Positions 2,854 through 16,768 of a stretch of 64,000 bases of DNA are shown one piece after another. Origin of the DNA: a virus. Lineage: Duplodnaviria; Caudoviricetes. A program made the position numbers and the translations under genes. The notes beneath the pieces were generated by a model. It was given only the letters and a program-made list of their open reading frames with translations, did no database searches and was not told the DNA's origin. Every line of letters starts with the position of its first letter. Position 1 is the first letter of the stretch. The stretch is from positions 1-64,000 of the IMG/VR virus record IMGVR_UViG_3300047447_000196. One strand, written 5' to 3'.

Positions 2854-4304
2854 TTACGCAGCGCTGTCCCAGCGCACGATGCGGGCGTTGGCGGCCTGCG
2901 TCTGCACGATGCCGAAGCCACCCAGGTAGTACCACGCGATACCGCGCGAACGACCGTAGTCGCTCGGGATGGCGCCGCGCATTTCTTCCGGGATGACGAT
3001 GCCTTCGGCGACGGTGTCGTTGCCGAAGAAGTACGCCCAGTTGGACTGGCCATTGGTCCAGGCCGCCTTGGCGATGTTGGTCTGCTCGACGAAGCGAACC
3101 GATTCGTAACGGCCGATTTCGCCGTTCAGGATCATCTGGAAGCCGGCGTCCACGTACTGGTGGACCGCTTCCAGGTCGTTCTTCACCTTGCGGAAGGTGG
3201 TCGGGTGCGCCAGCGAGATGTAGTCATCCCCGGTATACGGCGGGATGTTGCGTTCTTTCATCACATCGACGATGGCCTTGATGTGATCCTTGCCCAGCGC
3301 GACGTTGTTGGTGCCAGCGGCGGTGCCGTTGGTCGACAGCGTGACCGAGTTGGTCGAGGTGCCGCCGGTGGCGACCACGCGCAGCGGGGTCAGGCGGAAC
3401 TGCGCTTCGGCGGCGATGTCGAACGCCTTCTTCGCATCGTTCTTGAGCACCTTGGCGATGATCTCCTTCACCGGCTGCTCGGACAGATCGTCCAGCTTGC
3501 TGGTGTAGGGGACCGAGTTACCCATTTCGGTAACGGTCATGGTGCCCTGAGTGATGACGAAGTTCGTCGTCGGCATGGCGGTGCCCTCGGTGAGGGTGGT
3601 GCCCTGCGTCACGACGTCGCTGTAGATGTTCCAGTGGAACGCCTCGCCGATGCCCTTGCCCTGGACAGCGGCGTCCTTGATGTCAGCGAACTGCAATCTG
3701 TTACTTGAAGGCCTGGCGGTGCACTGCCAGGCGGGCGGTCATTTCTGCCGCCTCTCCGTCTTTGCTGACGTTAGCTTATACGGAGTTCGGACTATCGCAT
3801 CCCTGTTGCCAGGGCCTTCCCGCTTAGTCTCTCAGGCTGCACGGCCTTGCGGCCTGCTTGCCCCTTGTCGCCCCGCTACAGGGCTTCCAAGTCGATCAGG
3901 GAGGGTTTTAATTCCGCCAGCACTTAACGGAACTTGGTGAGGGGCTGCACGGACATGCGCAGCACTTTCGAGAGGTTGGGGGACCACATATAGCCCATGA
4001 TGTTCGCACGGTGTCGCTACCACCGCGCCGCCGGTTCCCAGGCCGGCTGCTTACCGTTTCCGGCAAGATCAGATCATTTCATCGTCCGCGTGGGACGCCA
4101 TGCACTTCGGGACCGCTTGGCCCCTACTCCCGCCTCCGGGATGATCGTTGAACGTTCCGGCTTGCGCCGGCTTCGCTGCAGATTGCCTTCGCCTTCACGC
4201 GGTCAGGGTTCCCTGCAATTCACACGGTTATCAGTCGCCGATTACTCGGCGACGGGGCAGTAAACTTTACCCAGGCTGTTCGTCAGCCAGACTTGACCTG
4301 CCAT
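2854..4304 (-). CDS. Major capsid protein (N4-gp56-like), spliced from 3 exons: 4304-4269, 3995-3927, 3693-2854; 314 aa
   Basis: Joined exons read in frame: MAGQVWLTNSLG|GYMWSPNLSKVLRMSVQPLTKFR|QFADIKD...TEMGNSVPYTSKLDDLS...GEIGRYESVRFVE...DYGRSRGIAWYYLGGFG. RBS AAGGAG before ATG at 4304. Directly follows the scaffold gene. Confidence 0.9.
3694..3926 (-). ncRNA. Group I intron 2 in capsid gene (233 nt, no ORF)
   Basis: Exon ends in U and intron ends in G. P1 UUCCGU:GCGGAA with U.G at the splice site; P10 CAG:CUG; P7 GACUA (3829-3825):UAGUC (3794-3790); P8 CCCUG-GCAA-CAGGG; GGCC-GCAA-GGCC hairpin; R-like CUGAGAGACUA and S-like AUGCGAUAGUCC. Confidence 0.9.
3996..4268 (-). ncRNA. Group I intron 1 in capsid gene (273 nt, no ORF)
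   Basis: Exon ends in U and intron ends in G. P1 GGGU:GCCC with U.G; P/Q-like AAUUGCAGGGAA and AAUCUGCAGCG (P4 UUGCAG:CUGCAG); P7 GAUCA (4146-4142):UGAUC (4071-4067); P9 CUUGCCG-GAAA-CGGUAAG. In-frame TAA at the 9th codon of the intron blocks readthrough. Confidence 0.88.
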
Positions 4305-4346
4305 AATATTTCTCCTTAGATTGCAAAAATGATGGATTTGCGCCTG

Positions 4347-5396
4347 TCAGCCCGCGCGCGCCGCCCTCATGGCGGCGATGATCGAGGACGCATCCTCGGG
4401 CGTGGTTTCGGTGGGCGCGGTTTTGGTGTTGATCGACGTCACGTTGTCGATCGTTCGCTTCTGCTCCAGCTTTTGCGCTCGGGAGGACGTGGTCGGGGCA
4501 GGATCTTCGCGGCGGCCCGGTTCCTGTACGGCGCTCCATCCGAACTTGGTAGCGAGTTCCTTGCTGACGGTGTCCAGCGCGGCGAAGAAGTCGGTGCCTT
4601 CTTCTGCCTGCTTGCGCTGGATCTTGGCCAGGGCCAGGGCTTCGATGTCGGGGTCGGCGTACATCTCGGGATAGTCGTGACGGTTCTGCGTCAATACACT
4701 CTCTACGACGAGCTTCTGCTGCACGTTGTGCGTCACCGCCTGGGCGATCTGGTCGACGTCGAGGATGGGCGCAGCTGCTTGAGCCTGCTGCCGTCCAGCC
4801 AACATTTCGTCCAGTTTGGTGAGCGCACTTTCTTCATCACCCTCAAAGAGGGCCTTGAGGAAATCTTTGCGGGCGGCGACGGCGTCGACGTCCGCGGGAT
4901 CGGGTTCGCGGGCCTGCTGGCCCTGCTGTTGCTGCAGCTGTTCCTGGTACTGCAGCATCTGCTGCTCGCGCAGCAGGCGTGCCGCCTCGGCTTCCTGGGC
5001 CTCGCGCAGGAGGCGCGTGGCTTCGGCCAGGCGTTTATCGGCGGCTGAATTCTTCTGGTACTGCCTGACGACCTCGTCGACCGGGACTTCGATCTCCTCG
5101 CCGTCGATCTTGACCTTGACCAGGGCCGGCGCGGCGGCGGATGCCGGGGCCGGTGCGGCGGCCGGGTCGTTCAGCTGGGCGTCCAGCTGGGAGGCAGCGG
5201 GTGCGGGTTCCGGCTCGGGCGCCGGTTCGTCCGGCAGCTGCCAGCCGTTCTGTGCGGCCATTTCGGCCTGGTGGCGCGCTTCGAGGGCTTCGAGGGCCTG
5301 TTCGCGCGCGGTCTTCTGCGGTGCTGCTTCTGCTGCGGTTTCTGCCGGTGCTGCGGCGACTTCATCGTTTTGCACGTCCGATTGGATAGCGCTCAT
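4347..5396 (-). CDS. Capsid scaffolding protein
   Basis: Acidic coiled-coil protein with VKVKIDGEEIEVPVDEVVRQYQK...ADKRLAEA motif, between portal and capsid. Confidence 0.8.
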   Translation of the reverse strand: MSAIQSDVQNDEVAAAPAETAAEAAPQKTAREQALEALEARHQAEMAAQNGWQLPDEPAPEPEPAPAASQLDAQLNDPAAAPAPASAAAPALVKVKIDGEEIEVPVDEVVRQYQKNSAADKRLAEATRLLREAQEAEAARLLREQQMLQYQEQLQQQQGQQAREPDPADVDAVAARKDFLKALFEGDEESALTKLDEMLAGRQQAQAAAPILDVDQIAQAVTHNVQQKLVVESVLTQNRHDYPEMYADPDIEALALAKIQRKQAEEGTDFFAALDTVSKELATKFGWSAVQEPGRREDPAPTTSSRAQKLEQKRTIDNVTSINTKTAPTETTPEDASSIIAAMRAARAG

Positions 5397-6771: not shown

Positions 6772-7076
6772 CACTCGCCCTCCTGGCTTTGCAGCTCGGC
6801 CTCGGCGGCCTGGCCGGCGATCTTGGCTTCTTCCAGCCAGTCGGCCACCGAGTCGGCGCGCTGCACGACCAGCTGCAGGCCGCGGATCTGCTCGACGTCG
6901 GCGGCCGGCACGTAGGCCAGCGCCTCGAGCGCGGCCTCCCTCTCCTGTTCGGCGCGGCCCAGCAGGTACTGGCCGACCGGCCCCTCGATGAAGGCCGTCA
7001 CGTCCAGGCCGAACTGCACCGTGTGCAGCAGCTGGCGCACCTCCGGGGGAAAGCGCGAGAAGTCGATTTCGATCAT
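6771..7076 (-). CDS. Hypothetical protein downstream of portal
   Basis: 101 aa helical ORF overlapping the portal stop. Confidence 0.7.
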   Translation of the reverse strand: MIEIDFSRFPPEVRQLLHTVQFGLDVTAFIEGPVGQYLLGRAEQEREAALEALAYVPAADVEQIRGLQLVVQRADSVADWLEEAKIAGQAAEAELQSQEGE

Positions 7077-10000
7077 GCGGTGTAGTGCTCCACGAGTTTG
7101 TCGAAGTAGTCACGGCCCAGCTGCTCGACACAATCGGCCGGGATGATGTAGTCGCCGCCCTGCAGGCCGACCGGGGCCATGGCGGCCGGGTCGCCCGGGG
7201 CGCCTTGCGCCGGCTGGTGGAACTGCGCGACCAGCTGGTCGAAGAAGTCCTGGCCGATCGCGGCGACCACGGCCGCCGGGATCAGGTACTCGCCGCTCGA
7301 CACCTGGGCCGGCTGCTGGCCGTCGATCAGGGCCGGGATCGCGTCGTCCGTCCCGCCGCCCGGTCCCTGGATCAGGCCGCCGTCGGCGTAGCCGGGCGCC
7401 TGCTGCTGGCGCTGCATCTTCTCGACGTACTCCGGGATCGAGTTGATCGAGGCGTCGAGCTTGGCGCGGTTGTCGCCGATGTAGCGCATGGCCTGCTGGG
7501 CGGCGCTGTGGATCGGCGCCTTGGCCAGCTTGTAGCCTGGCACCAGGCCGATCGCATCGAGCGCGGCGTCACCGTACTGGCCCTTGCGCACGTCGTTGGC
7601 CACGTCCAGCGCCGAGGTCACGGTGCCGGTGCCGGGCAGCATGTCCAGCGCCAGCTTGGTCTTCGGGTTCTCGTTCGACAGGCGCTCGTAGCCGGCCAGC
7701 GCGCGGCCTGGCAGGCTCGCCACCTGCTGCACGCCGTTGTTCATTGCGGTCGCCGCGCCGTTCCAGGCCTGCTGCACCGGGTTGAGCGGGTTGTTCGGGT
7801 CCACCAGGCCGCCGTCGGCATAGCCCTGGCCCTCGTTGCCGTCCGGGGCGCGCGGGCGCGCGGCGCCGCCCCAGGTCGGGTCCTGGCCGTCCAGGAAGCG
7901 GTCGCGCGCCTGGTCGCCGTAGCTGCTGCCCCACTGGCCGCCGGTCTTGTTCAGCGACTTGATGTGGTTGACGTAGCCGCTGATCTGGCCCAGCGCCTGG
8001 TGCCGCATCTGCTGGTTCGACGGGTCGTAGTTGCCGCCCAGGATGCCCATGTTGTATGCGGTCGACAGCAGCGCATCGCGGTCCTTGAAGCCGGTCAGCG
8101 CGTCGGCGCGGTCGAGGTTGGCGCCGGTGTAGCCGTACAGGTGGTCGGCGATGAAGCCGCCATCCGCGAACGCGGCGCGCGCGATCAGGCTGGCCCCGGC
8201 CGAATCGGGCCGGGTGGTCTCGATGCCGGCTCTAGCGCCGGTCCCGGCGGTCGGCGGCATCGGCGGCAGCGGCATGTTGGTGGTCGACGCGCCCTGCCCC
8301 GGCATGAAGCCGATGCCGGTACGGCGGTTCTTCACAGCCTCGATCCCGAGGCCGGCGGCTGGGCCGCCCGGCTGCGGGAAGTTCGGGTCGATGCCGCTCG
8401 GGGTCGGCGGGCGGTAGCCGGCGGCCTTCATCAGCTCGTCGGCGATCGGCGCCACGCCCGGCACCGCGGCGATGACCTCGGCGGTCTGCATCGCCGAGAA
8501 CTGGGCTTCGGAACCCTTCTTGACCGCATCGGCCGCCGTGACCTTGTCTTTCACACTCAGGCTGGCCACCTCGGCGTCGATCTTGCGGATCTGCGCGGCG
8601 ATCAGGGCCGGATCGACCTTCTGCGCCAGCTGCTGCTGCAACTGGTTGACCTGGTCCTGCAGCTGCTTGATGCGCGGGTCGGCGCCGTCGAAGTTGAAGA
8701 AGCGGGCGCCGTCCTTGTAGCCGAGCTTGCCGAACAGCTCCTTGACGATCTCCTCGACGTTCATGCCCAGCTGCACCAGGCCCTCGTTGGCCAGCATGTT
8801 GCCCAGCGCGGTCATGCCGTCGACGAACTGGCGCACCTGGTCGGCCGGGTTCACGGCGCCCATCCCGACATTCACATTCAGCGTGAACTCGTGCATCAGC
8901 ATGTCGTCCGTGACCTGGTCCATGCCGAAGCGCTGGTTCAGCTGCGCACTCTTGCCGCACAGCGCGATCAGGGCGTCGTCGGTCTCGTAATACTGTTCCA
9001 GCAGCACGATCTGGCGCAGGACCGGCTCGACCCAGGTCTCGACGAAGGTGCGCAGCTGGTAGCCCGAGACCTGGTTGGCGCCGGCGTCCAGCATCTGCAT
9101 GCCGCCCACGGTCTCGTTCAGCTTGCGGTTGCTCTGGACCGACGACCCCGAAAAGGTGCCGGCGACGTCATCAAAATCCAGGTTCAGGACTTCCTGTTCC
9201 TTGTAGGAGGAGCCGGTGACGTCGTTGAACTCGACGACCTTGACGTCGTCGATGTCCTGCACCAGGGTCACGCTGCCCGGCACGTTGCGGGTGACGGAGC
9301 GCAGGTCGACCTGCTTGTTGCGGCGCGCGAAATAGCGCTTGTTCATCGCCAGCTTGACGTTGTCGATGCGCTGGTTGGCCACTTCGTTGATCTCGGCCTG
9401 CACGTCCTTGGTGAGCCTGGGCACCGAGGACGGATACAGCTTGTGGGTTTCCAGCACGGCGGCGCCGATCACGTACGGGCGGCGGCCGTGGAAGTAGACC
9501 TCCTCGAGCGGGACCGGGTCCGACAGCAGGTGTTCGCAGCCGAGGGTGTAGTAGCAGTAGTCGACGCCGTCGACCTCGACCACGTTCTTGTGCACCCACA
9601 CGACATTGAAATTGCCGTTGGCCTGCTGCTGGTACTTGGAGTCCGGGCGCGGGGCTTCGCGCTGCAGGCGGATGGTGTCGCCGTAGGTCTTGGTCGCGCC
9701 CTGGATCTGCGAGTCCGACAGCTGTCGCCACCTCGGTTCGCCGGTCTTCGGGTCGACGCGGGTCATGCGGGCCTTGACGTCCTTGACGTACATCGGGATC
9801 AGCTCGATCACGTACGGGCTTGTGCCGATCGGGTCGGTCCAGTCGGCGCCCGGGTCGATGCGCAGGTTCTCGATCGGGATCAGGCGGATCGCCGGGCGGT
9901 CGATCTTCTTCTTCTCGTCGTACTGCCAATACTGGTACGACGCCACCACGCCGACGGTCTGCGCGTCCTGGTAGGCGCCCACGAGGGTCAGGAACCAGGG

Positions 10001-10378
10001 GATCGACTTGGTCAGGCGGTGCTGCAGCAGCTCGCCCATCACGGCGGCGCTGGCCATCTGCGCGGGATCGTCCTCGTCCTGGGCCGTCACCTTGACGACG
10101 TCATTGCTGGCAAAAAACGCCTGTGCTGCGGCCGCCTCGTTCTTGCGGATGGTCGTGCGCGTTTTCGGCCGGAACAGTTTACTTCTACCCTTGTTGGCGT
10201 CGGCCAGGTACTTGCTGCCGCTGGGGTGCTGGCCCTGGAACTGGCGCAAATCGCCCTCGATCTGTGCGCGCACGGAGCTGTCGAACCAGTTGGTCGAGGC
10301 CGAGTAGGCGTCACGCGCCAGGGCGACCCAGTCGGGCGTGCTTTGCGCCGGCGCGGCGGTGTTGGTCTGGTCGTCCAT
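7073..10378 (-). CDS. Portal protein (podovirus-type) with ~375-aa C-terminal extension
   Basis: LFRPKTRTTIRK, IELIPMYV, NEVANQRIDNVKLAMN, ETVGGMQML and FVETWVEPVLRQIV motifs; position upstream of scaffold/capsid. Confidence 0.85.
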   Translation of the reverse strand: MDDQTNTAAPAQSTPDWVALARDAYSASTNWFDSSVRAQIEGDLRQFQGQHPSGSKYLADANKGRSKLFRPKTRTTIRKNEAAAAQAFFASNDVVKVTAQDEDDPAQMASAAVMGELLQHRLTKSIPWFLTLVGAYQDAQTVGVVASYQYWQYDEKKKIDRPAIRLIPIENLRIDPGADWTDPIGTSPYVIELIPMYVKDVKARMTRVDPKTGEPRWRQLSDSQIQGATKTYGDTIRLQREAPRPDSKYQQQANGNFNVVWVHKNVVEVDGVDYCYYTLGCEHLLSDPVPLEEVYFHGRRPYVIGAAVLETHKLYPSSVPRLTKDVQAEINEVANQRIDNVKLAMNKRYFARRNKQVDLRSVTRNVPGSVTLVQDIDDVKVVEFNDVTGSSYKEQEVLNLDFDDVAGTFSGSSVQSNRKLNETVGGMQMLDAGANQVSGYQLRTFVETWVEPVLRQIVLLEQYYETDDALIALCGKSAQLNQRFGMDQVTDDMLMHEFTLNVNVGMGAVNPADQVRQFVDGMTALGNMLANEGLVQLGMNVEEIVKELFGKLGYKDGARFFNFDGADPRIKQLQDQVNQLQQQLAQKVDPALIAAQIRKIDAEVASLSVKDKVTAADAVKKGSEAQFSAMQTAEVIAAVPGVAPIADELMKAAGYRPPTPSGIDPNFPQPGGPAAGLGIEAVKNRRTGIGFMPGQGASTTNMPLPPMPPTAGTGARAGIETTRPDSAGASLIARAAFADGGFIADHLYGYTGANLDRADALTGFKDRDALLSTAYNMGILGGNYDPSNQQMRHQALGQISGYVNHIKSLNKTGGQWGSSYGDQARDRFLDGQDPTWGGAARPRAPDGNEGQGYADGGLVDPNNPLNPVQQAWNGAATAMNNGVQQVASLPGRALAGYERLSNENPKTKLALDMLPGTGTVTSALDVANDVRKGQYGDAALDAIGLVPGYKLAKAPIHSAAQQAMRYIGDNRAKLDASINSIPEYVEKMQRQQQAPGYADGGLIQGPGGGTDDAIPALIDGQQPAQVSSGEYLIPAAVVAAIGQDFFDQLVAQFHQPAQGAPGDPAAMAPVGLQGGDYIIPADCVEQLGRDYFDKLVEHYTA

Positions 10379-10387
10379 GGGGCCTCG

Positions 10388-10744
10388 TTAGCGGTCGAAC
10401 ACGAAGTCGCCGGCGAAGTTGGTCGCCAGCTGGGTGTACTGCGATTCGTTGAACTGGCCCCGGGACAGGCGGAAGCGCTCGAGGATCTCGCCGCCGGCGC
10501 GGATCACGTCCTTCCTGAACTCGGACGCCGAGTAGATGTCCACGAGTTTCAGGCGGTAGCCCCACTGGCCGGACAGCATCAGGTCGTGGATGTTGGCCAC
10601 GCCGTTCGGGCCGTCGACGTTGATCGCCCACAGGTGGCCCGGGTAGTGGCTGTGCAGCGTGTCGGCGATCTCCTTGGCGAGGATCATGTCGTGCGCGCTG
10701 GTCGCCATGGCGCTGTCGTCCAGGCCGACGAGGATTTTGCTCAT
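10388..10744 (-). CDS. Phage hypothetical protein
   Basis: 118 aa, AKEIADTLHSHYPGHLWAINVD...AGGEILERFRLSRG. Confidence 0.7.
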   Translation of the reverse strand: MSKILVGLDDSAMATSAHDMILAKEIADTLHSHYPGHLWAINVDGPNGVANIHDLMLSGQWGYRLKLVDIYSASEFRKDVIRAGGEILERFRLSRGQFNESQYTQLATNFAGDFVFDR

Positions 10745-10762
10745 GGGGGGTGTCCTAAAGGG

Positions 10763-10915
10763 TCAGTCGTCGTAGAAATCCGGCTCGGTCTCGCTCTGGA
10801 TCAGGCGAGCCTTCTCGTAGTCGGACAGCCACTGGTATTGCTGGAAGGAGTACAGGGCGCGGATGGAGTCGGGCAGCGCCTGGTACTCGCGGTAGACCAG
10901 GCTCGATTCGTTCAT
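10763..10915 (-). CDS. Small hypothetical protein
   Basis: Hand-translated MNESSLVYREYQALPDSIRALYSFQQYQWLSDYEKARLIQSETEPDFYDD (50 aa). Confidence 0.55.
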   Translation of the reverse strand: MNESSLVYREYQALPDSIRALYSFQQYQWLSDYEKARLIQSETEPDFYDD

Positions 10916-10924
10916 GGCTTCCAT

Positions 10925-13900
10925 CTACACCACCGTGATCGTGTGGTTCAGGGCGTTGTAGCCGGTCGCCGCTTCCCACAGGCCGGTGTTGGCCAGCCGG
11001 ATCGCGTAGGCCGGGTTCGCGGCGAGGGTGGCATCCGCATCCGGCAGCGCCAGGAACAAGGCGTAGCTGCCCGCCGCCATCCCGGCCGGCAGGAGCAAGG
11101 TCTCGTTCACGTCCGTGGTCGTGCCGGCCAGCCAGGTCCGGGGGTCGGTGCCCAAGGCCAGGCGCGTCTCGGCGCCCGTCGTCGTGTTGCGCAGCACGAG
11201 GTAGACGGTGCGGCCGGAGACCGGGGCGGCGAACCCGCTGTTGTTGACCGAGAACGCCACATTGATGCTGGTGCCGCGGGTGCCGACGGTGGGGTAGCTG
11301 CCGGTCGTGAGGGCCAGGCGGTAGCCGAGGCGCTTGCTGATCGTCGCGTAGTCGCCGCTGTCCTTCCACGACTGGATGACGAGATCCTGGTAGCCGGAAT
11401 TGATGAAGGTCCAGTGGAACCGGGTCATCTCGGCGATGGCCGTCGCGCCGCTGGATCTCGGCTCGTTGTAGGTGCAGGTCTCGCCGCCCATCGGCACATA
11501 GAGGGTGTCGGCGGCCAGGAAGGCTTCTTCGGTCGGCTGGTCGTAGTAGGTGCCGGAATCGTCCGGGCCGGACAGGAAACAGTCGTTGAAGTGGCCGACG
11601 CGGGAGCGCGCGCTGCCGTCGAACGCGGTGCTGCTGGAGACCGGCGTGTTGCCGGTGTTGTACATCTTGATCCACGGCTGGCGCACCTGCACCCAGCGGT
11701 GCGCCGGCATCACGGCCAGGGCCTTGTCGACCACGGCCTTGCGCAGCTGGCGGTTGGCGTCGGACAGGTTCGGCGGCCACGAGTCGGCGCCGAAGTTGTT
11801 GGACCCCTGGAATTCGCCCCAGCGTCCCACGAAGCCGGCCTGCATGCCGAAGATCACGTCGTCGTTGGCGGAGAGATATGGCGCCAGCTGGTCGAGGTGG
11901 CCCTGGATGCGGGTGAGCGTGGCGTCGGCGGTGTCGGTCGAGGTGTAGGCGAACCGGAGGATCGCCTTCATGCCGAGCGAACGGATCGAGTCGAGGTGCG
12001 ACTGGAAGGCGTTCAGGAACGTGGCATCCAGCGCGGCGGTCTTGTACGAGGACAGGTAGGCCTGGTACAGCACCAGGCTCATGTTCTGGGCCTTGTACTG
12101 GTTCAGGTTCGCTGCCGAAAAATCGCCGGTGTGCAGCAGGTGGACATACAGGCCGCGTTCCGGGTTGGCAAAATCGGCGGTGCTGGCGGTGTAGGTCACG
12201 CTGCTGCCGGCGCTGCTGGCGACGATGGCGGCCTGGACACTCTGGGCCTGCTTCGTCATCGCCAGGCCGCTGCTCGATTTCGCCACGGCGGCCTGGGCGC
12301 GCTGGCCCTGCTTCGTCGTGACGTTCGACAGGTTCTCGTAGCTGCCCAGCAGCGCGGCGCGCTGGCCCTGCGTCGTCGCGGCGCTGGCGCTGATGCCGGT
12401 GCCGCCCAGCAGGGCTGCACGCTGCGCCTGGCGGGTGCTGGCGGTGCTCGGGGTGGCCGTGATCGCCAGCGCGCCGGTCGACGACTGGCGGTGGTTCGTC
12501 TTGACGGTGAGATCCAGCAGCGGGGCCTTGGCGGTCTGCGCGAGGCGCGGCACCACGGCGAACTGCGCGCCGTAGCCGTAGTTCGGTTTCGTCGGGCGCG
12601 ACTGGAACTTGTTCCAGGCGGTCAGGCCGCCCGGATAGCCCGCGTCGACCGTGAAGGCCAGCGCCGGCTGGTAGTCGGCCGCGAAGCCGACCGTGGAGTC
12701 CGGGTAGCCGTCGATGTCGCCCGGCAGCAGCGGCGAGCCGGCGGTGGCGAGGCGCTGCGGCGAGTCGCAGGGGTACTGCGCCTGGCTGGCCGGGATCGTG
12801 AACTGCCAGCACTGGGCCAGCGTCGGGAACATCGGCGCGGACGAGGTGGTCTTGACGCCCAGCGAGTAGGCGCAGGAATCCTGCACGCAGATCGCCGGGT
12901 CGAGCATGCGGCCGACCTGGAATTTCGCTTTCCAGTCCAGCAGGCGCTTGGCCTCGCTGTTCCCCAGCAGCTCGACGCCGTGGCCGATCGACATGGTGAA
13001 GAAGTCGTCCTGCCAGCAGGCCAGGCCGTTGGCGCTGCCGCCGTTGATGTTGTAGGCCAGCGCCTGATCCTCGATCACGCCCAGCGGGTTGCTGTTGCCG
13101 TCGACGTACTTGGCGACGTACCAGGCGATGTTGTCGGCGTAGCAGGTGGTGAAATGCGACTTCAGGTAGTGGTCGTCCGGCGTGATCGCGGCGGCCTGCG
13201 CGATCGTGCGCATGCTCCATGCCTGGCCGCGCACCTGGTCGGGGTGGACCAGCGACTTGCCGAACTCCCTGTAGTACGGGTTCCCGAAGTACATGTCGTA
13301 GGTGGCGAAGAACTGCAACTGCTCCAGATAGAAGTAGTCGCCGCTCAAGAGGTACGGCAGGTAGCAGATGCCCGGCTGGTGCGCGCAATCGACCACGCCC
13401 TGCGTGACGGTGGTCAGGTCGGGCAGCTTCTCGTTCTTGCCGGTGGCCGGGTTGAGCGCATCGCCGGGGTTGCCGAGGATGCAGGCGTACGGGAAGTTCC
13501 TGGTCGACAGCGGCAGGCCGCGGCCCGGCCCGCTGCTGTCGTCGCGCCGGCAGATCGGCCAGGAACCGGCAATGTCGCCGGCCGCCAGCACGATCGCCTT
13601 GGCGCGGCGGTCCATGGTGAGGATCGCGGCGACGTGGGTGTCCGGCATGATGCCGATGTCGCTGCGCCCGCCGGTGGTCGGCATGTACGGCGTGAAGCGG
13701 CCGAACTTCATCGGCTCGTAGGTGCCGCCGGTGAGCCAGGTGTCGTAGCTGGCCAGCTCGCTTTCGGGGAAGGTGATGCTCTGGTCGTAGTTCGGGACCA
13801 GTTTCGACGCGATCAGGTAGGCGGTGTCGTGGCGGACGTGCAGGGTCGGCGCTTGCCCGATCCAGAACGTCTTCTTCCAGCGCCCGGTCGGCGTGTGGGT

Positions 13901-15094
13901 CAGCCCCGTCTTGCTGTAATAGGTGGTCGCACCGGCCTTGAGCGTGACGTCGTAGGTGATGTCGGTCGTCGACAGGTAGGCCTTGGTGTGCTCGACGGTG
14001 GCGTCGACGCGGACCTGGCCGCTGCTGAACACGCGCACCGAGAACTGGGCGGTCAGGGTCGGGTGCGGGCCGGCAGCGCCGACGAACGGCACGTTGAAGA
14101 TGAAGTCCGAGGCGACCGGGCCGGCGAGCCAGGTGTCGTAGGCGGCGCCGGCGCAGCTGGCGGTCCAGGTGGCGCCGGCGATGACGAGCTGGGCGACCGG
14201 CAGCGTGGCCGGCATGGCGACCGCAGGCAGGCCCGGGGGAGAAGCGGCGCGGCGGATCGACAGCGTCTGCGAGCTGGATGCGGCCAGACTCGGCATCACG
14301 CCGCACAGGATCGCGTGGCGCACCGAGCCGTCCGCGTGTTTCGCCTTGACGGTGAACTGGGCCGGGACGCTGGTGCCGTCCGGCTGCACCAGGGCGACGT
14401 TCGCGCCCGCACTTGGGAGGTGGCCCGAGGCGAACGCATGGCCGAGGTAGAACGGCGCGTTGGTGACAGGCGTGGCGGCGGTGTTCTCGATCTTGAGCGT
14501 GGTGATCTCGCTGCCGAGCGGGATCGGGTCCTCGCTGCCCGGCAGCTTGCCGTCGATTCCCATCACGCTTGCTGCGTACTGGGCCTGGCGGGTGGTCACG
14601 GCGCCGGCGATCGGCGGGTTGGCGCCGTTGAGGGCGATGCCGACCTGGGTCTTCTGCGCCTGGCGGCTGGTCGCGGTGCTGTTGGTCGCCAGGTTCTCGC
14701 TGGTGATCGTGACCTGCAAGGCGCTGTGCTGGCGCTGGCGGGTCGCCACGTCGGCGTCCAGCTGCGGATCGACACCATCGACACCGAACACGGCGGCGAC
14801 CAGCTGGGCCTGCATGGACGCGGCGCTGGCGTCGGTGACGATGTTCTCGCTGGTGACGGCGGCGTCGGCGGCCACGAACTGCACCTGGCGGGTGACGACG
14901 GAAAGCGTCAGTTCCGGCGGCAGGTCGTCGCGCGGCGCGTACAGGGTCGAGTTGACGTCGGTGACGAAGGTGCGGCCGCCGAACCCATAGGCGAGCACCG
15001 GCCGCGCATCGAAGTTGGCGGCGGGATCGGCCATCCCGACTTCCTCCGACCACAGGCGGGTCGAGAAGCTCGGAATGGTGGGATCGTTACTCAT
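10925..15094 (-). CDS. Large putative virion protein: repeat scaffold + RGLX/YetA-like lyase region + DUF4874/DUF4832 glycoside-hydrolase-like domain
   Basis: PFYLGHAF...VPAQFTV..HADGSVRHA and HQPGICYLPYLLSGD...QVRGQAWSMR; C-term FANPERGLY...AILRFAY...AGFVGRWGE...GHFNDCFL...GGETC...RLGYRL. Confidence 0.7.
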   Translation of the reverse strand: MSNDPTIPSFSTRLWSEEVGMADPAANFDARPVLAYGFGGRTFVTDVNSTLYAPRDDLPPELTLSVVTRQVQFVAADAAVTSENIVTDASAASMQAQLVAAVFGVDGVDPQLDADVATRQRQHSALQVTITSENLATNSTATSRQAQKTQVGIALNGANPPIAGAVTTRQAQYAASVMGIDGKLPGSEDPIPLGSEITTLKIENTAATPVTNAPFYLGHAFASGHLPSAGANVALVQPDGTSVPAQFTVKAKHADGSVRHAILCGVMPSLAASSSQTLSIRRAASPPGLPAVAMPATLPVAQLVIAGATWTASCAGAAYDTWLAGPVASDFIFNVPFVGAAGPHPTLTAQFSVRVFSSGQVRVDATVEHTKAYLSTTDITYDVTLKAGATTYYSKTGLTHTPTGRWKKTFWIGQAPTLHVRHDTAYLIASKLVPNYDQSITFPESELASYDTWLTGGTYEPMKFGRFTPYMPTTGGRSDIGIMPDTHVAAILTMDRRAKAIVLAAGDIAGSWPICRRDDSSGPGRGLPLSTRNFPYACILGNPGDALNPATGKNEKLPDLTTVTQGVVDCAHQPGICYLPYLLSGDYFYLEQLQFFATYDMYFGNPYYREFGKSLVHPDQVRGQAWSMRTIAQAAAITPDDHYLKSHFTTCYADNIAWYVAKYVDGNSNPLGVIEDQALAYNINGGSANGLACWQDDFFTMSIGHGVELLGNSEAKRLLDWKAKFQVGRMLDPAICVQDSCAYSLGVKTTSSAPMFPTLAQCWQFTIPASQAQYPCDSPQRLATAGSPLLPGDIDGYPDSTVGFAADYQPALAFTVDAGYPGGLTAWNKFQSRPTKPNYGYGAQFAVVPRLAQTAKAPLLDLTVKTNHRQSSTGALAITATPSTASTRQAQRAALLGGTGISASAATTQGQRAALLGSYENLSNVTTKQGQRAQAAVAKSSSGLAMTKQAQSVQAAIVASSAGSSVTYTASTADFANPERGLYVHLLHTGDFSAANLNQYKAQNMSLVLYQAYLSSYKTAALDATFLNAFQSHLDSIRSLGMKAILRFAYTSTDTADATLTRIQGHLDQLAPYLSANDDVIFGMQAGFVGRWGEFQGSNNFGADSWPPNLSDANRQLRKAVVDKALAVMPAHRWVQVRQPWIKMYNTGNTPVSSSTAFDGSARSRVGHFNDCFLSGPDDSGTYYDQPTEEAFLAADTLYVPMGGETCTYNEPRSSGATAIAEMTRFHWTFINSGYQDLVIQSWKDSGDYATISKRLGYRLALTTGSYPTVGTRGTSINVAFSVNNSGFAAPVSGRTVYLVLRNTTTGAETRLALGTDPRTWLAGTTTDVNETLLLPAGMAAGSYALFLALPDADATLAANPAYAIRLANTGLWEAATGYNALNHTITVV

Positions 15095-15214
15095 CTAGGT
15101 CCTCTGGAATGGGCAGCGGCTTGGGTGGCGGCGACTTGGGCGGCAGGCTGTCCAGCCAGGCCACGAAGTCCGGCGACGGCTCGAACGGCGCGGGTGGGAA
15201 CGCGCCGTCCGCCA

Positions 15215-15475
15215 TCACATCCCCCTGCCCTTGTGCTTGGCGTGGGCCGGGATTTGGTTGGCCTGGTTGTGGGTGTCGGTGCGGACCACGCCTCTAGCGG
15301 TCGGCACGCTCGGCACCTGGCGGCTGGTCTTCGGCACTGGCGGACGCGCCATCGGCGACGGCGCGGCGCTTGGTGCCGGGACGGCAGCCGGACGGGCAGC
15401 CTTCGGCGGCAGCGGCGGCGGGTTCATGGACGGCACTTGTTCCGGCTTGGCGACAGGCTTGACGAACTTCTTCAT
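15215..15475 (-). CDS. Pro/Lys-rich hypothetical protein
   Basis: MKKFVKPVAKP..., GGAG RBS; low complexity. Confidence 0.4.
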   Translation of the reverse strand: MKKFVKPVAKPEQVPSMNPPPLPPKAARPAAVPAPSAAPSPMARPPVPKTSRQVPSVPTARGVVRTDTHNQANQIPAHAKHKGRGM

Positions 15476-15529
15476 GGGAGGTCTCCGAAAGTCTTGACAG
15501 GTGGTAACGAACCGCGACAAACTGGCGCG

Positions 15530-16768
15530 ATGGATATCCAAAAAGAAACGGAACGGGCCGAAGTCCTGCTGCCGGCCCAGCTCGACGACGATGTGCTGCG
15601 CTACGTGATGGAGTGCGCGCACCTGAACAACCCGGACGGCGCGCGCCTGGTGAAGTCGATCCACCTTTTCATGCACGAGGCGCTGCGCACCAGGCCACCC
15701 GAGCCGCAGTACCACGCCACGCTGCGCGGCATGGCCGATTGCATGGACATGGTCTGGCGGGAGCTGATCGAGGCCGGGGTGATCGACCAGAAGGTGGCGC
15801 CGATGTTCGTGGCCGAGGCGGTGCTGGCCCGGCTGGATGGTCTGCGCAACGAAATGCTCGTCGTGCAACGTCGCCTCGCCGGCGAGACCCTGCGCGCCGG
15901 TCTGGCCGAGGCGCGCGCCGCGTCGAAGTCGAAGGAGTGCATCGAGCTGCGCGAGCGCATGGCGGCAAGGCCGGCGATCCCGGCCACGCCGGAGCAGGCC
16001 ATCGCCTTCATCGGCAACCAGTGCGAGGTGCGCGAGGATGCGGTGCCGCTGGACCGGACCCGCTTCCAGCTCACCGTCCACGATCTGCTGTCTGCGTTCC
16101 GCTGGTGGTTCCACGATGACGTGGCTGACGGCGCGATCTACGAGGCGGTGTCGCGCCGTGCCGATCCGGCAGCGCATGATGCGGCCGTCGCCGAGTCCAT
16201 GGCCGTGCTGTCTAATTCCGCCGAATTCGACGGAATTAGAATGCCTACAGGCCGGGACCAAACCGCTGTTCCGGTGGCGACCGGAGCCGTTGAAACCCGC
16301 ATGGATACTGGCTTCCAGCCTCTGCCAGAGGGTGGGCCTAATTCCCCCGAATTCGAGGGAATTAACAAAGCCGTGACTGTCACGGAAAAGGGGCCGTGGC
16401 AGGCCGAGGAAATCGCGCAACGGCTGCCCCCGCCCCGCGCTACGGTCGCTGCGGTGACGGCCGAGCTTCTGGCCGCCGGCAACGCGGTGGTCGAGCACTG
16501 GCACTCGCGCGACTGGAAAAAGCCGCCTACTGCGGATGTCATCGCCCGGCTGACGAGGGCGGTAGGCCGGGTCAAACGTGGCCGTGAGCTGTACACCTGC
16601 GTCGACAAGGGCGGCGAATACGAACTGGTTGGCGAGGCGAAGGGCGCCGGGACGTTGAAGACTTATTCGGGCTTGATCGTCTACCAGGACAGCATGACCG
16701 GGCAGATGTACTGCCGTTCGATGACGGACTTCGACAAGCGCATGCAGCGCATCAAGGAGACGCTGTGA
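15530..16768 (+). CDS. Mosaic hypothetical protein with C-terminal DUF1653-like domain (412 aa)
   Basis: Only the last 412 aa (MDIQKETE...) of the 3227-aa track ORF look coding; ends KGGEYELVGEA...LIVYQD...YCRSMTDFDKRM. Confidence 0.65.
   Translation: MDIQKETERAEVLLPAQLDDDVLRYVMECAHLNNPDGARLVKSIHLFMHEALRTRPPEPQYHATLRGMADCMDMVWRELIEAGVIDQKVAPMFVAEAVLARLDGLRNEMLVVQRRLAGETLRAGLAEARAASKSKECIELRERMAARPAIPATPEQAIAFIGNQCEVREDAVPLDRTRFQLTVHDLLSAFRWWFHDDVADGAIYEAVSRRADPAAHDAAVAESMAVLSNSAEFDGIRMPTGRDQTAVPVATGAVETRMDTGFQPLPEGGPNSPEFEGINKAVTVTEKGPWQAEEIAQRLPPPRATVAAVTAELLAAGNAVVEHWHSRDWKKPPTADVIARLTRAVGRVKRGRELYTCVDKGGEYELVGEAKGAGTLKTYSGLIVYQDSMTGQMYCRSMTDFDKRMQRIKETL
16211..16364. repeat. Two near-perfect palindromes TAATTCC(G/C)CCGAATTCGA(C/G)GGAATTA inside a CDS
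   Basis: 16211-16240 (14/15 pairs) and 16339-16364 (12/13 pairs). Confidence 0.85.

Follow-up and report, generated by a model that had tools for sequence, protein, structure and literature searches.

How does a phage make its major capsid protein when the reading frame annotated for it lacks a proper start? The question is raised by IMG/VR record IMGVR_UViG_3300047447_000196, of which the first 64,000 nucleotides (nt) were analysed (hereafter the window; the whole record spans 74,269 nt). The capsid gene lies on the minus strand, and is miscalled as an open reading frame (ORF) of 280 amino acids (aa) with a false TTG start. The original prediction, made from the sequence of the window, held that the gene is split by two ORF-less group I introns, 4268-3996 and 3926-3694, and that their removal restores a 314-aa frame preceded by a ribosome binding site and opening with ATG. 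Coordinates, frame, ribosome binding site and start codon all hold, and give the following predicted arrangement.

4312..4317, minus strand: Shine-Dalgarno-like AAGGAG, read from the sequence, 7 nt ahead of the capsid ATG
4304-4302, minus strand: capsid start codon ATG
4269..4304, minus strand: capsid exon 1, 12 codons (MAGQVWLTNSLG), last codon GGU; matches the N-terminus of uninterrupted 314-aa homologs
3996..4268, minus strand: predicted intron 1, 273 nt, ORF-less group I; starts AAAG, ends AUCAUG; guide GCCC at 4258-4255
3927..3995, minus strand: capsid exon 2, 69 nt, 23 codons (GYMWSPNLSKVLRMSVQPLTKFR), 3' end UUCCGU
3694..3926, minus strand: predicted intron 2, 233 nt, ORF-less compact group I; starts UAAG, ends AUUG
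3916-3911, minus strand: guide GCGGAA of intron 2; its two P7 strands are at 3831-3826 and 3793-3789
2854..3693, minus strand: capsid exon 3, 279 codons and stop codon, from the ORF list

Joining the three exons by script yields 314 codons and a stop codon, with no internal stop. Left unspliced, the frame runs into a stop after 20 aa inside insert 1, and the first codon of insert 2 is TAA, so that each insert carries the in-frame stop that had been claimed for it; the TTG at which the annotated 280-aa ORF opens is made up of the three bases that end insert 2. The predicted mRNA junctions read CUGGGU/GGCUAU and UUCCGU/CAGUUC, and the peptides spanning them in the predicted protein are MAGQVWLTNSLGGYMWSPNLSK and FRQFADIK.

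Comparison to homologs provides an independent view of the joined frame. A search with exon 3 returned 5511 homologs; in the best 120 most have a length of exactly 314 aa, and the N-termini of the 314-aa homologs (MAGQVWLTNSLGGYMWSPNLSKVLRMSVQPLTKFRQFADIK) are those expected of the joined exons. Aligned over its full length and free of gaps, the spliced protein shows 96.2% identity to the uninterrupted homolog P0003; it is identical to a second uninterrupted homolog (P0010) across residues 1-41, and its exon 2 is collinear with residues 13-35 of uninterrupted homologs. The alignment that the original prediction had proposed as a check thus returns, in genes that have no inserts, the N-terminal peptide that it foresaw. 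A shift of one nucleotide at either junction leaves the protein the same (through GGG or CGG codons), so it is the group I rule (U before the intron, G at its end) and P1 pairing that fix the precise points of splicing. Homologs of 300 aa in gene calls of the Joint Genome Institute (JGI) were considered as carriers of intron 1 and rejected: the one checked (L003) is uninterrupted, and its length reflects the choice of start codon.

The protein itself is a major head protein (exon 3 matches phrog_1357, E 2e-19), and N4-gp56 family is the JGI name for many of its homologs. Membership of that family, as originally proposed, stands in part. TIGR04387, which represents the family, matches exon 3 alone at 50.5 bits and intact P0003 at 57.6 bits (E 1e-13 to 1e-15), and neither reaches the curated cut-off of 60 bits; by this measure the capsid protein is a relative of the N4-gp56 family placed just under the equivalog cut-off.

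Insert 1 scores just under the cut-off of the Rfam group I model RF00028. Searched against the whole window, the model aligns 4278-4050 to all 253 of its positions, with a score of 49.3 bits and an E-value of 1.6e-9. Inserts at the same site in independent contigs are 84-87% identical to it and score 59 bits (L086) and 75.9 bits (L075), over the cut-off; the junction of these homologous inserts reads CTGGGT/AAA...AAAATG/GG. In P1 of intron 1 the exon sequence GGGU pairs with GCCC of the intron, a U.G pair falls at the splice site and the terminal base is G, and the same U.G pair and terminal G are present in L075, L086 and L133. P7 is GAUCA/UGAUC (also in L166) as against GACUA/UAGUC in L086, L096 and L133, a difference of two compensatory double changes. 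The P9.1 and P9.2 hairpins, which lie past the 3' end of the Rfam model, stay paired with differing sequences, and GNRA loops are provided by GAAA and GCAA hairpins. The features on which the two introns had first been proposed – the U and G at the splice sites, P1 with its U.G pair, P7 and GNRA hairpins – are found in this insert and, as set out below, in the second.

Fold and relatives of intron 2

The second insert belongs to a sizeable family. A 16-nt stretch of its core is found in 69 viral contigs, and 35 distinct cores of the family were aligned with MAFFT (alignment A1). Unguided RNAalifold on A1 returns P3 enclosing P4, P5 and P6. With a structure that includes the P7 pseudoknot, 98.0% of the cells of A1 are paired, compared to 35-49% in controls in which the structure was slid by one to three columns, and 11 pairs show compensatory change. 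A covariance model of the family (R1) collected 97 matches, of which 57 are distinct; in the alignment of these 57 (A3), which is fitted to R1 and hence leans towards the structure, 98.3% of cells are paired, slid controls give 41-51%, and compensatory change is seen in 16 of the 20 pairs. R1 scores intron 2 at 98.2 bits (3912-3786), which is within the range of other members. Minimum-free-energy folds gave z-scores that are modest only (-2.5 and -2.2).

The helices of intron 2 follow the order P1, P3, P4-P6, P7, P3', P8, P7', P9, with a P3/P7 pseudoknot; the family has no P2 and its P4-P6 domain is very small. Of 54 distinct sequences, 48 fold P8 as a simple hairpin, and do so with 46 different versions of its sequence; GCAA loops cap P6 and P8 of insert 2. 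P7 is canonical, (G/C)AGACUA...UAGUC with a bulged base, and a change from GAG-A-GACU/AGUCC to GAA-C-GACU/AGUCU shows the outer G replaced by A, the bulged A by C and the partner C by U in the same three sequences. At the splice sites, UUCCGU pairs with GCGGAA to form P1, again with a U.G pair at the point of cleavage, and a terminal G preceded by the conserved AAGUAACAG is present in all six close relatives. Pairing in P9, P9.1 and P9.2 is kept by compensatory changes in the close relatives of intron 2.

Several results weigh against reading both inserts as functional group I introns. RF00028 gives no match to intron 2 in a 1-kb search at E-values up to 10, and none of 13 family members scanned with it was matched at its own position; R1, for its part, finds nothing in T4, Twort or SPO1. 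The group I status of intron 2 accordingly rests on its fold and on splice-site rules. Intron 1 falls 0.7 bits under the gathering threshold of RF00028 (50 bits), which is why an Rfam scan at gathering thresholds finds no match in the window and the intron becomes visible when matches are ranked by E-value. The source record, moreover, is an uncultured contig, roughly 74% complete. The Infernal check proposed with the original prediction therefore has a divided outcome: intron 1 is matched over the full length of the model, just under its threshold, and intron 2, with the same order of helices and a canonical P7, is not matched at all. Set against these points are the covariation that supports the fold of insert 2, the U.G pair at its splice site and its terminal G. 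Judged on sequence and predicted structure, insert 2 is a group I intron, as had been proposed, of a family invisible to Rfam.

We regard it as very probable that the two inserts both function as group I introns; that they splice, and do so efficiently in vivo, is what we infer from the features above. The capsid gene would be transcribed as a precursor holding two independent ORF-less introns, each of which would fold into a ribozyme whose guide pairs with the end of the 5' exon (GGGU/GCCC for intron 1, UUCCGU/GCGGAA for intron 2) and forms a U.G pair where cleavage would occur. Splicing would follow the usual course for group I: a free guanosine would attack at the 5' splice site, after which the released exon would attack just past the terminal G of the intron. 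Because either unspliced intron would stop translation at once, only the doubly spliced mRNA would encode the 314-aa capsid protein. We infer, and only infer, that exon skipping (exon 1 to exon 3) would drop exactly 23 codons in frame.

Distribution and possible movement of the introns

If two splicing steps are obligatory for the production of capsid protein, then it is pertinent to ask whether they serve the phage. The original prediction suggested that they do, as an adaptive regulator that sets the amount of capsid relative to scaffold, or its timing, or that couples virion production to GTP and Mg2+. Both introns interrupt the opening 105 nt of the late gene expressed most highly, which immediately follows a 349-aa ORF rich in Ala, Glu and Gln (4347-5396) that we take, by position and composition only, to encode a putative scaffold, and the splicing of T4 introns is reported, in a title that PMC8541194 cites, to depend on translation and growth state.

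The distribution of the introns points elsewhere. The capsid gene is uninterrupted in 76 of 80 viral-contig loci with a homolog, including genes that are 88-96% identical to the uninterrupted query P0006. Among loci that carry inserts, each intron occurs without the other, as the following predicted arrangements show (site 2 is the position of intron 2, after codon 35; site 3 lies after codon 55).

L086: intron 1 only
L081: intron-2 type only, at site 2
L075-77: intron 1, and the intron-2 type at site 3 in place of site 2
L075:2645-2873, L133:3656-3884 and L132:122-349: site-3 introns, after codon 55 (AFH/WNV)
L080 and L082-85: site-2 intron of 740-870 nt holding a 206-208-aa ORF
L080:1739-2500, L082:2095-2869 and L083:2235-3003: coordinates of ORF-bearing site-2 introns
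L142:626-3100: more distant capsid homolog with three introns, located at site 2 (R1 type), past residue 93 and near residue 289

The large introns at site 2 carry an endonuclease-like ORF. In L080 and L082-85 it matches phrog_5046, labelled HNH endonuclease (E 4e-14), and holds a LAGLIDADG-like motif, LAGIIDGEG; the ORF of L083 has no Pfam or NCBIfam match, and solved LAGLIDADG enzymes are matched only non-significantly. The ORF opens inside an enlarged P1 loop and continues across the guide. The region of the guide and the final ~60 nt of these introns are shared with intron 2, but the core is a different one, unmatched by R1. In L142 the intron after residue 93 (RF00028, 87.8 bits) holds an antisense HNH ORF, and the intron near residue 289 scores 92.3 bits with RF00028. 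Neither insert of the window has an endonuclease ORF: the only same-strand overlapping ORFs of at least 40 aa are of 63 and 52 aa and have no Pfam match, and at 233-273 nt the inserts are too short to hold an endonuclease gene.

Uninterrupted homologs in such a majority, introns that come and go independently and endonuclease-bearing introns at the same site together point to selfish mobile elements, which would have colonised a tolerant, highly expressed late gene, and not to a dedicated regulatory device. That introns of the intron-2 type sit at more than one site, and in genes unrelated to this one (ribonucleotide reductase, portal and other capsid genes, below), argues in the same direction. 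A regulatory role is thus improbable, and the effects on stoichiometry, timing or GTP and Mg2+ status proposed for it find no support.

The base before the intron is always T in intron-bearing alleles (GGT, CGT, CAT). Of 20 alleles that have no intron, a single one has T as the last base of codon 12 and a single one as that of the site-3 codon; at site 2, CGT is present in eight.

The existence of intron-2 relatives at two sites allows the history of the lineage to be considered. Site 2 reads ..UUCCGU/CAG.. and site 3, 60 nt downstream in the same gene, reads ..UUCCAU/UGG..; the guide is GCGGAA in three site-2 introns and GUGGAA in three site-3 introns, a compensatory change in P1. TTCCGT occurs once in the spliced gene, at site 2. 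TTCCAT occurs once in the spliced gene of L075, at site 3, and nowhere in the gene of the window or that of L081. The site-2 intron of L081 is 86% identical to the site-3 introns and only 70% identical to intron 2 of the window. In a small tree it groups with the site-3 introns (support 90/94), the intron of the window comes next and that of L142 is outermost; the tree has six sequences and a midpoint root, L142 sits on a long branch and the order inside the group of L081 and the site-3 introns is not settled.

The simplest reading is a single move of an ORF-less intron lineage out of site 2 and into site 3, after which its guide would have changed from GCGGAA to GUGGAA. The route of such a move is likely to have been reverse splicing directed by the 6-nt internal guide. 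An alternative would be that ends and cores of introns have recombined, as is suggested by the ORF-bearing site-2 introns, which share their ends with intron 2 around a different core. Present at two positions separated by 60 nt, with a guide that matches each, the lineage offers a clean natural case for testing guide-directed mobility by reverse splicing. A further site-3 candidate is probably to be found in P0066, a protein of 260 aa that starts MWNVYSD.

Beyond this capsid gene the intron-2 family splits a range of phage genes. In sampled contigs the reading frames that flank the core are those of ribonucleotide reductase (L089, L127, L143), portal protein (L095, L153) and another type of major head protein (L110), and GIY-YIG endonuclease genes lie beside the core in L092 and L119. 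Two deposited phage sequences show the consequence for annotation. In Roseobacter phage CRP-118 (L173, OR420741.1 35056-35455) the core, at 98.7 bits with R1, lies between two coding sequences (CDSs) both named ribonucleotide reductase; in MW202674.1 (L174, 16872-17088; 87.7 bits) it lies between two CDSs both named P22 coat protein. The intron is unannotated in both records, and the family leaves a ribonucleotide reductase gene in the one and a capsid gene in the other as two CDSs. A covariance model of the family would mend many phage annotations that are beyond the reach of RF00028.

Whether a guide-matched move from site 2 to site 3, and a large compact family that RF00028 misses and that splits ribonucleotide reductase, portal and capsid genes, both hold as one account is a matter on which we are evenly divided.

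The family is often present more than once in a phage contig, and several contigs have two to four copies. L113 (3325, 3646, 5725, 5957), L136, L140 and L150 each have more than one, and in L140 (302-969) three fall within about 700 nt. The 16-nt core motif also occurs in 29 bacterial contigs, where the model gives only four matches, in three of the 29. A scan of genome contigs with an intron-2 pattern of 31 positions (27 specified) found no match. A pattern for P1 (TTCCRTTAA N(2-6) CTGGYGGAA) had 120 matches in metagenomes; none is followed by an intron core and they were set aside as chance matches. As a separate observation, one viral contig (L160:9185-11250) carries five RF00028 group I introns, at 75-93 bits, within about 2 kb.

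Remaining alternatives and known systems

Were one or both inserts splicing-dead, or dependent on a protein helper supplied in trans, then the capsid gene would be dead or crippled. Such a state is conceivable in an uncultured and incomplete contig, and the score of intron 1 with RF00028 is lower than that of its homologs (49.3 as against 59-76 bits). The exons, however, are intact and nearly identical to intronless alleles, the core helices, U.G pairs and terminal G are all kept, intron 2 at 98 bits on its family model is inside the range of other members, and the differences from relatives are compensatory; loss of splicing is, in our judgement, a shade less probable even than a regulatory role.

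That the inserts are not introns at all – an assembly chimera, an insertion sequence or miniature inverted-repeat transposable element, an intein, a group II intron or a translational bypass element – has nothing to commend it beyond the bare fact of an interrupted ORF and can be dismissed as having next to no probability: independent contigs, obtained from different samples, have homologous inserts at these junctions, in-frame stops preclude inteins, there is no transposase or reverse-transcriptase ORF, the fold is that of group I, and a length of 233-273 nt far exceeds the translational bypass of T4 gene 60, which is 50 nt.

Functional group I introns, our preferred explanation, would have precedent in capsid genes. 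The rarity implied by the original prediction is not upheld, such introns having been published in mycobacteriophage LittleE and in crAss-like phages. The major capsid gene of LittleE holds a group I intron whose splicing was shown by reverse transcription PCR and N-terminal protein sequencing (Pope et al. 2013, PMC3706429); a related ORF-less copy is present in a tail gene of BAKA (PMC3706429), and the same work cites a capsid-gene intron in lactococcal phage Tuc2009. In a crAss-like phage the capsid gene is in five fragments (Yutin et al. 2021, PMC7886860), and Jug phages have about 18 small ORF-less introns (about 206 nt) per genome, part of them confirmed by metatranscriptome reads (PMC12880540). 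Group I introns in capsid genes are therefore a known arrangement, of which the present gene is a new case.

The resemblance to LittleE extends to the position of the intron in the N-terminal part of the major capsid gene, to the U at the end of the exon and to the G at the end of the intron. LittleE differs in that a single intron of ~820 nt carries an endonuclease ORF in antisense; the present gene has two introns, small, ORF-less and unrelated in type, with 69 nt between them, their splicing is predicted from sequence, and the phage has an SU10-type portal and an N4-gp56-related capsid protein. The crAss-like and Jug phages share with the present case the splitting of core structural genes, capsid included, by group I introns, but they are phages of Bacteroidota whose genomes have up to 14-18 introns each; across the whole 74,269-nt record, a single intron is found by RF00028 and a single one by R1, namely the two in the capsid gene.

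Staphylococcus phage Twort provides a further parallel: according to the title of Landthaler and Shub (1999), as cited in PMC6669764, orf142 has three group I introns in one gene and shows exon skipping. Twort resembles the present case in having several group I introns in one late gene with short exons between them; host and gene are different, and the Twort genome has no match to R1. Among known cases an exon of 69 nt is not extreme. The window would add a phage with an SU10-type portal to those in which ribozymes must splice the message for the most abundant protein of the virion, as predicted here.

The head module

The capsid gene sits in a head module, after the gene for the SU10-type portal (7073-10378). 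Its closest named homolog is in a Telluria sp. metagenome bin, and a simple terminator scan called no terminator 3' of the gene. Antisense through the portal gene runs a plus-strand ORF of 3227 aa (7085-16768) with a low-complexity translation rich in Arg, Gly and Ala; we take this to be an artefact of ORF listing in GC-rich DNA and not a gene. Downstream of the capsid gene in the same module, on the minus strand at 444-2048, is a 534-aa ORF with an N-terminal S-adenosylmethionine-dependent methyltransferase domain (PF08241, E 2e-12), and a gene similar to it comes after the capsid gene in L081 and L086.

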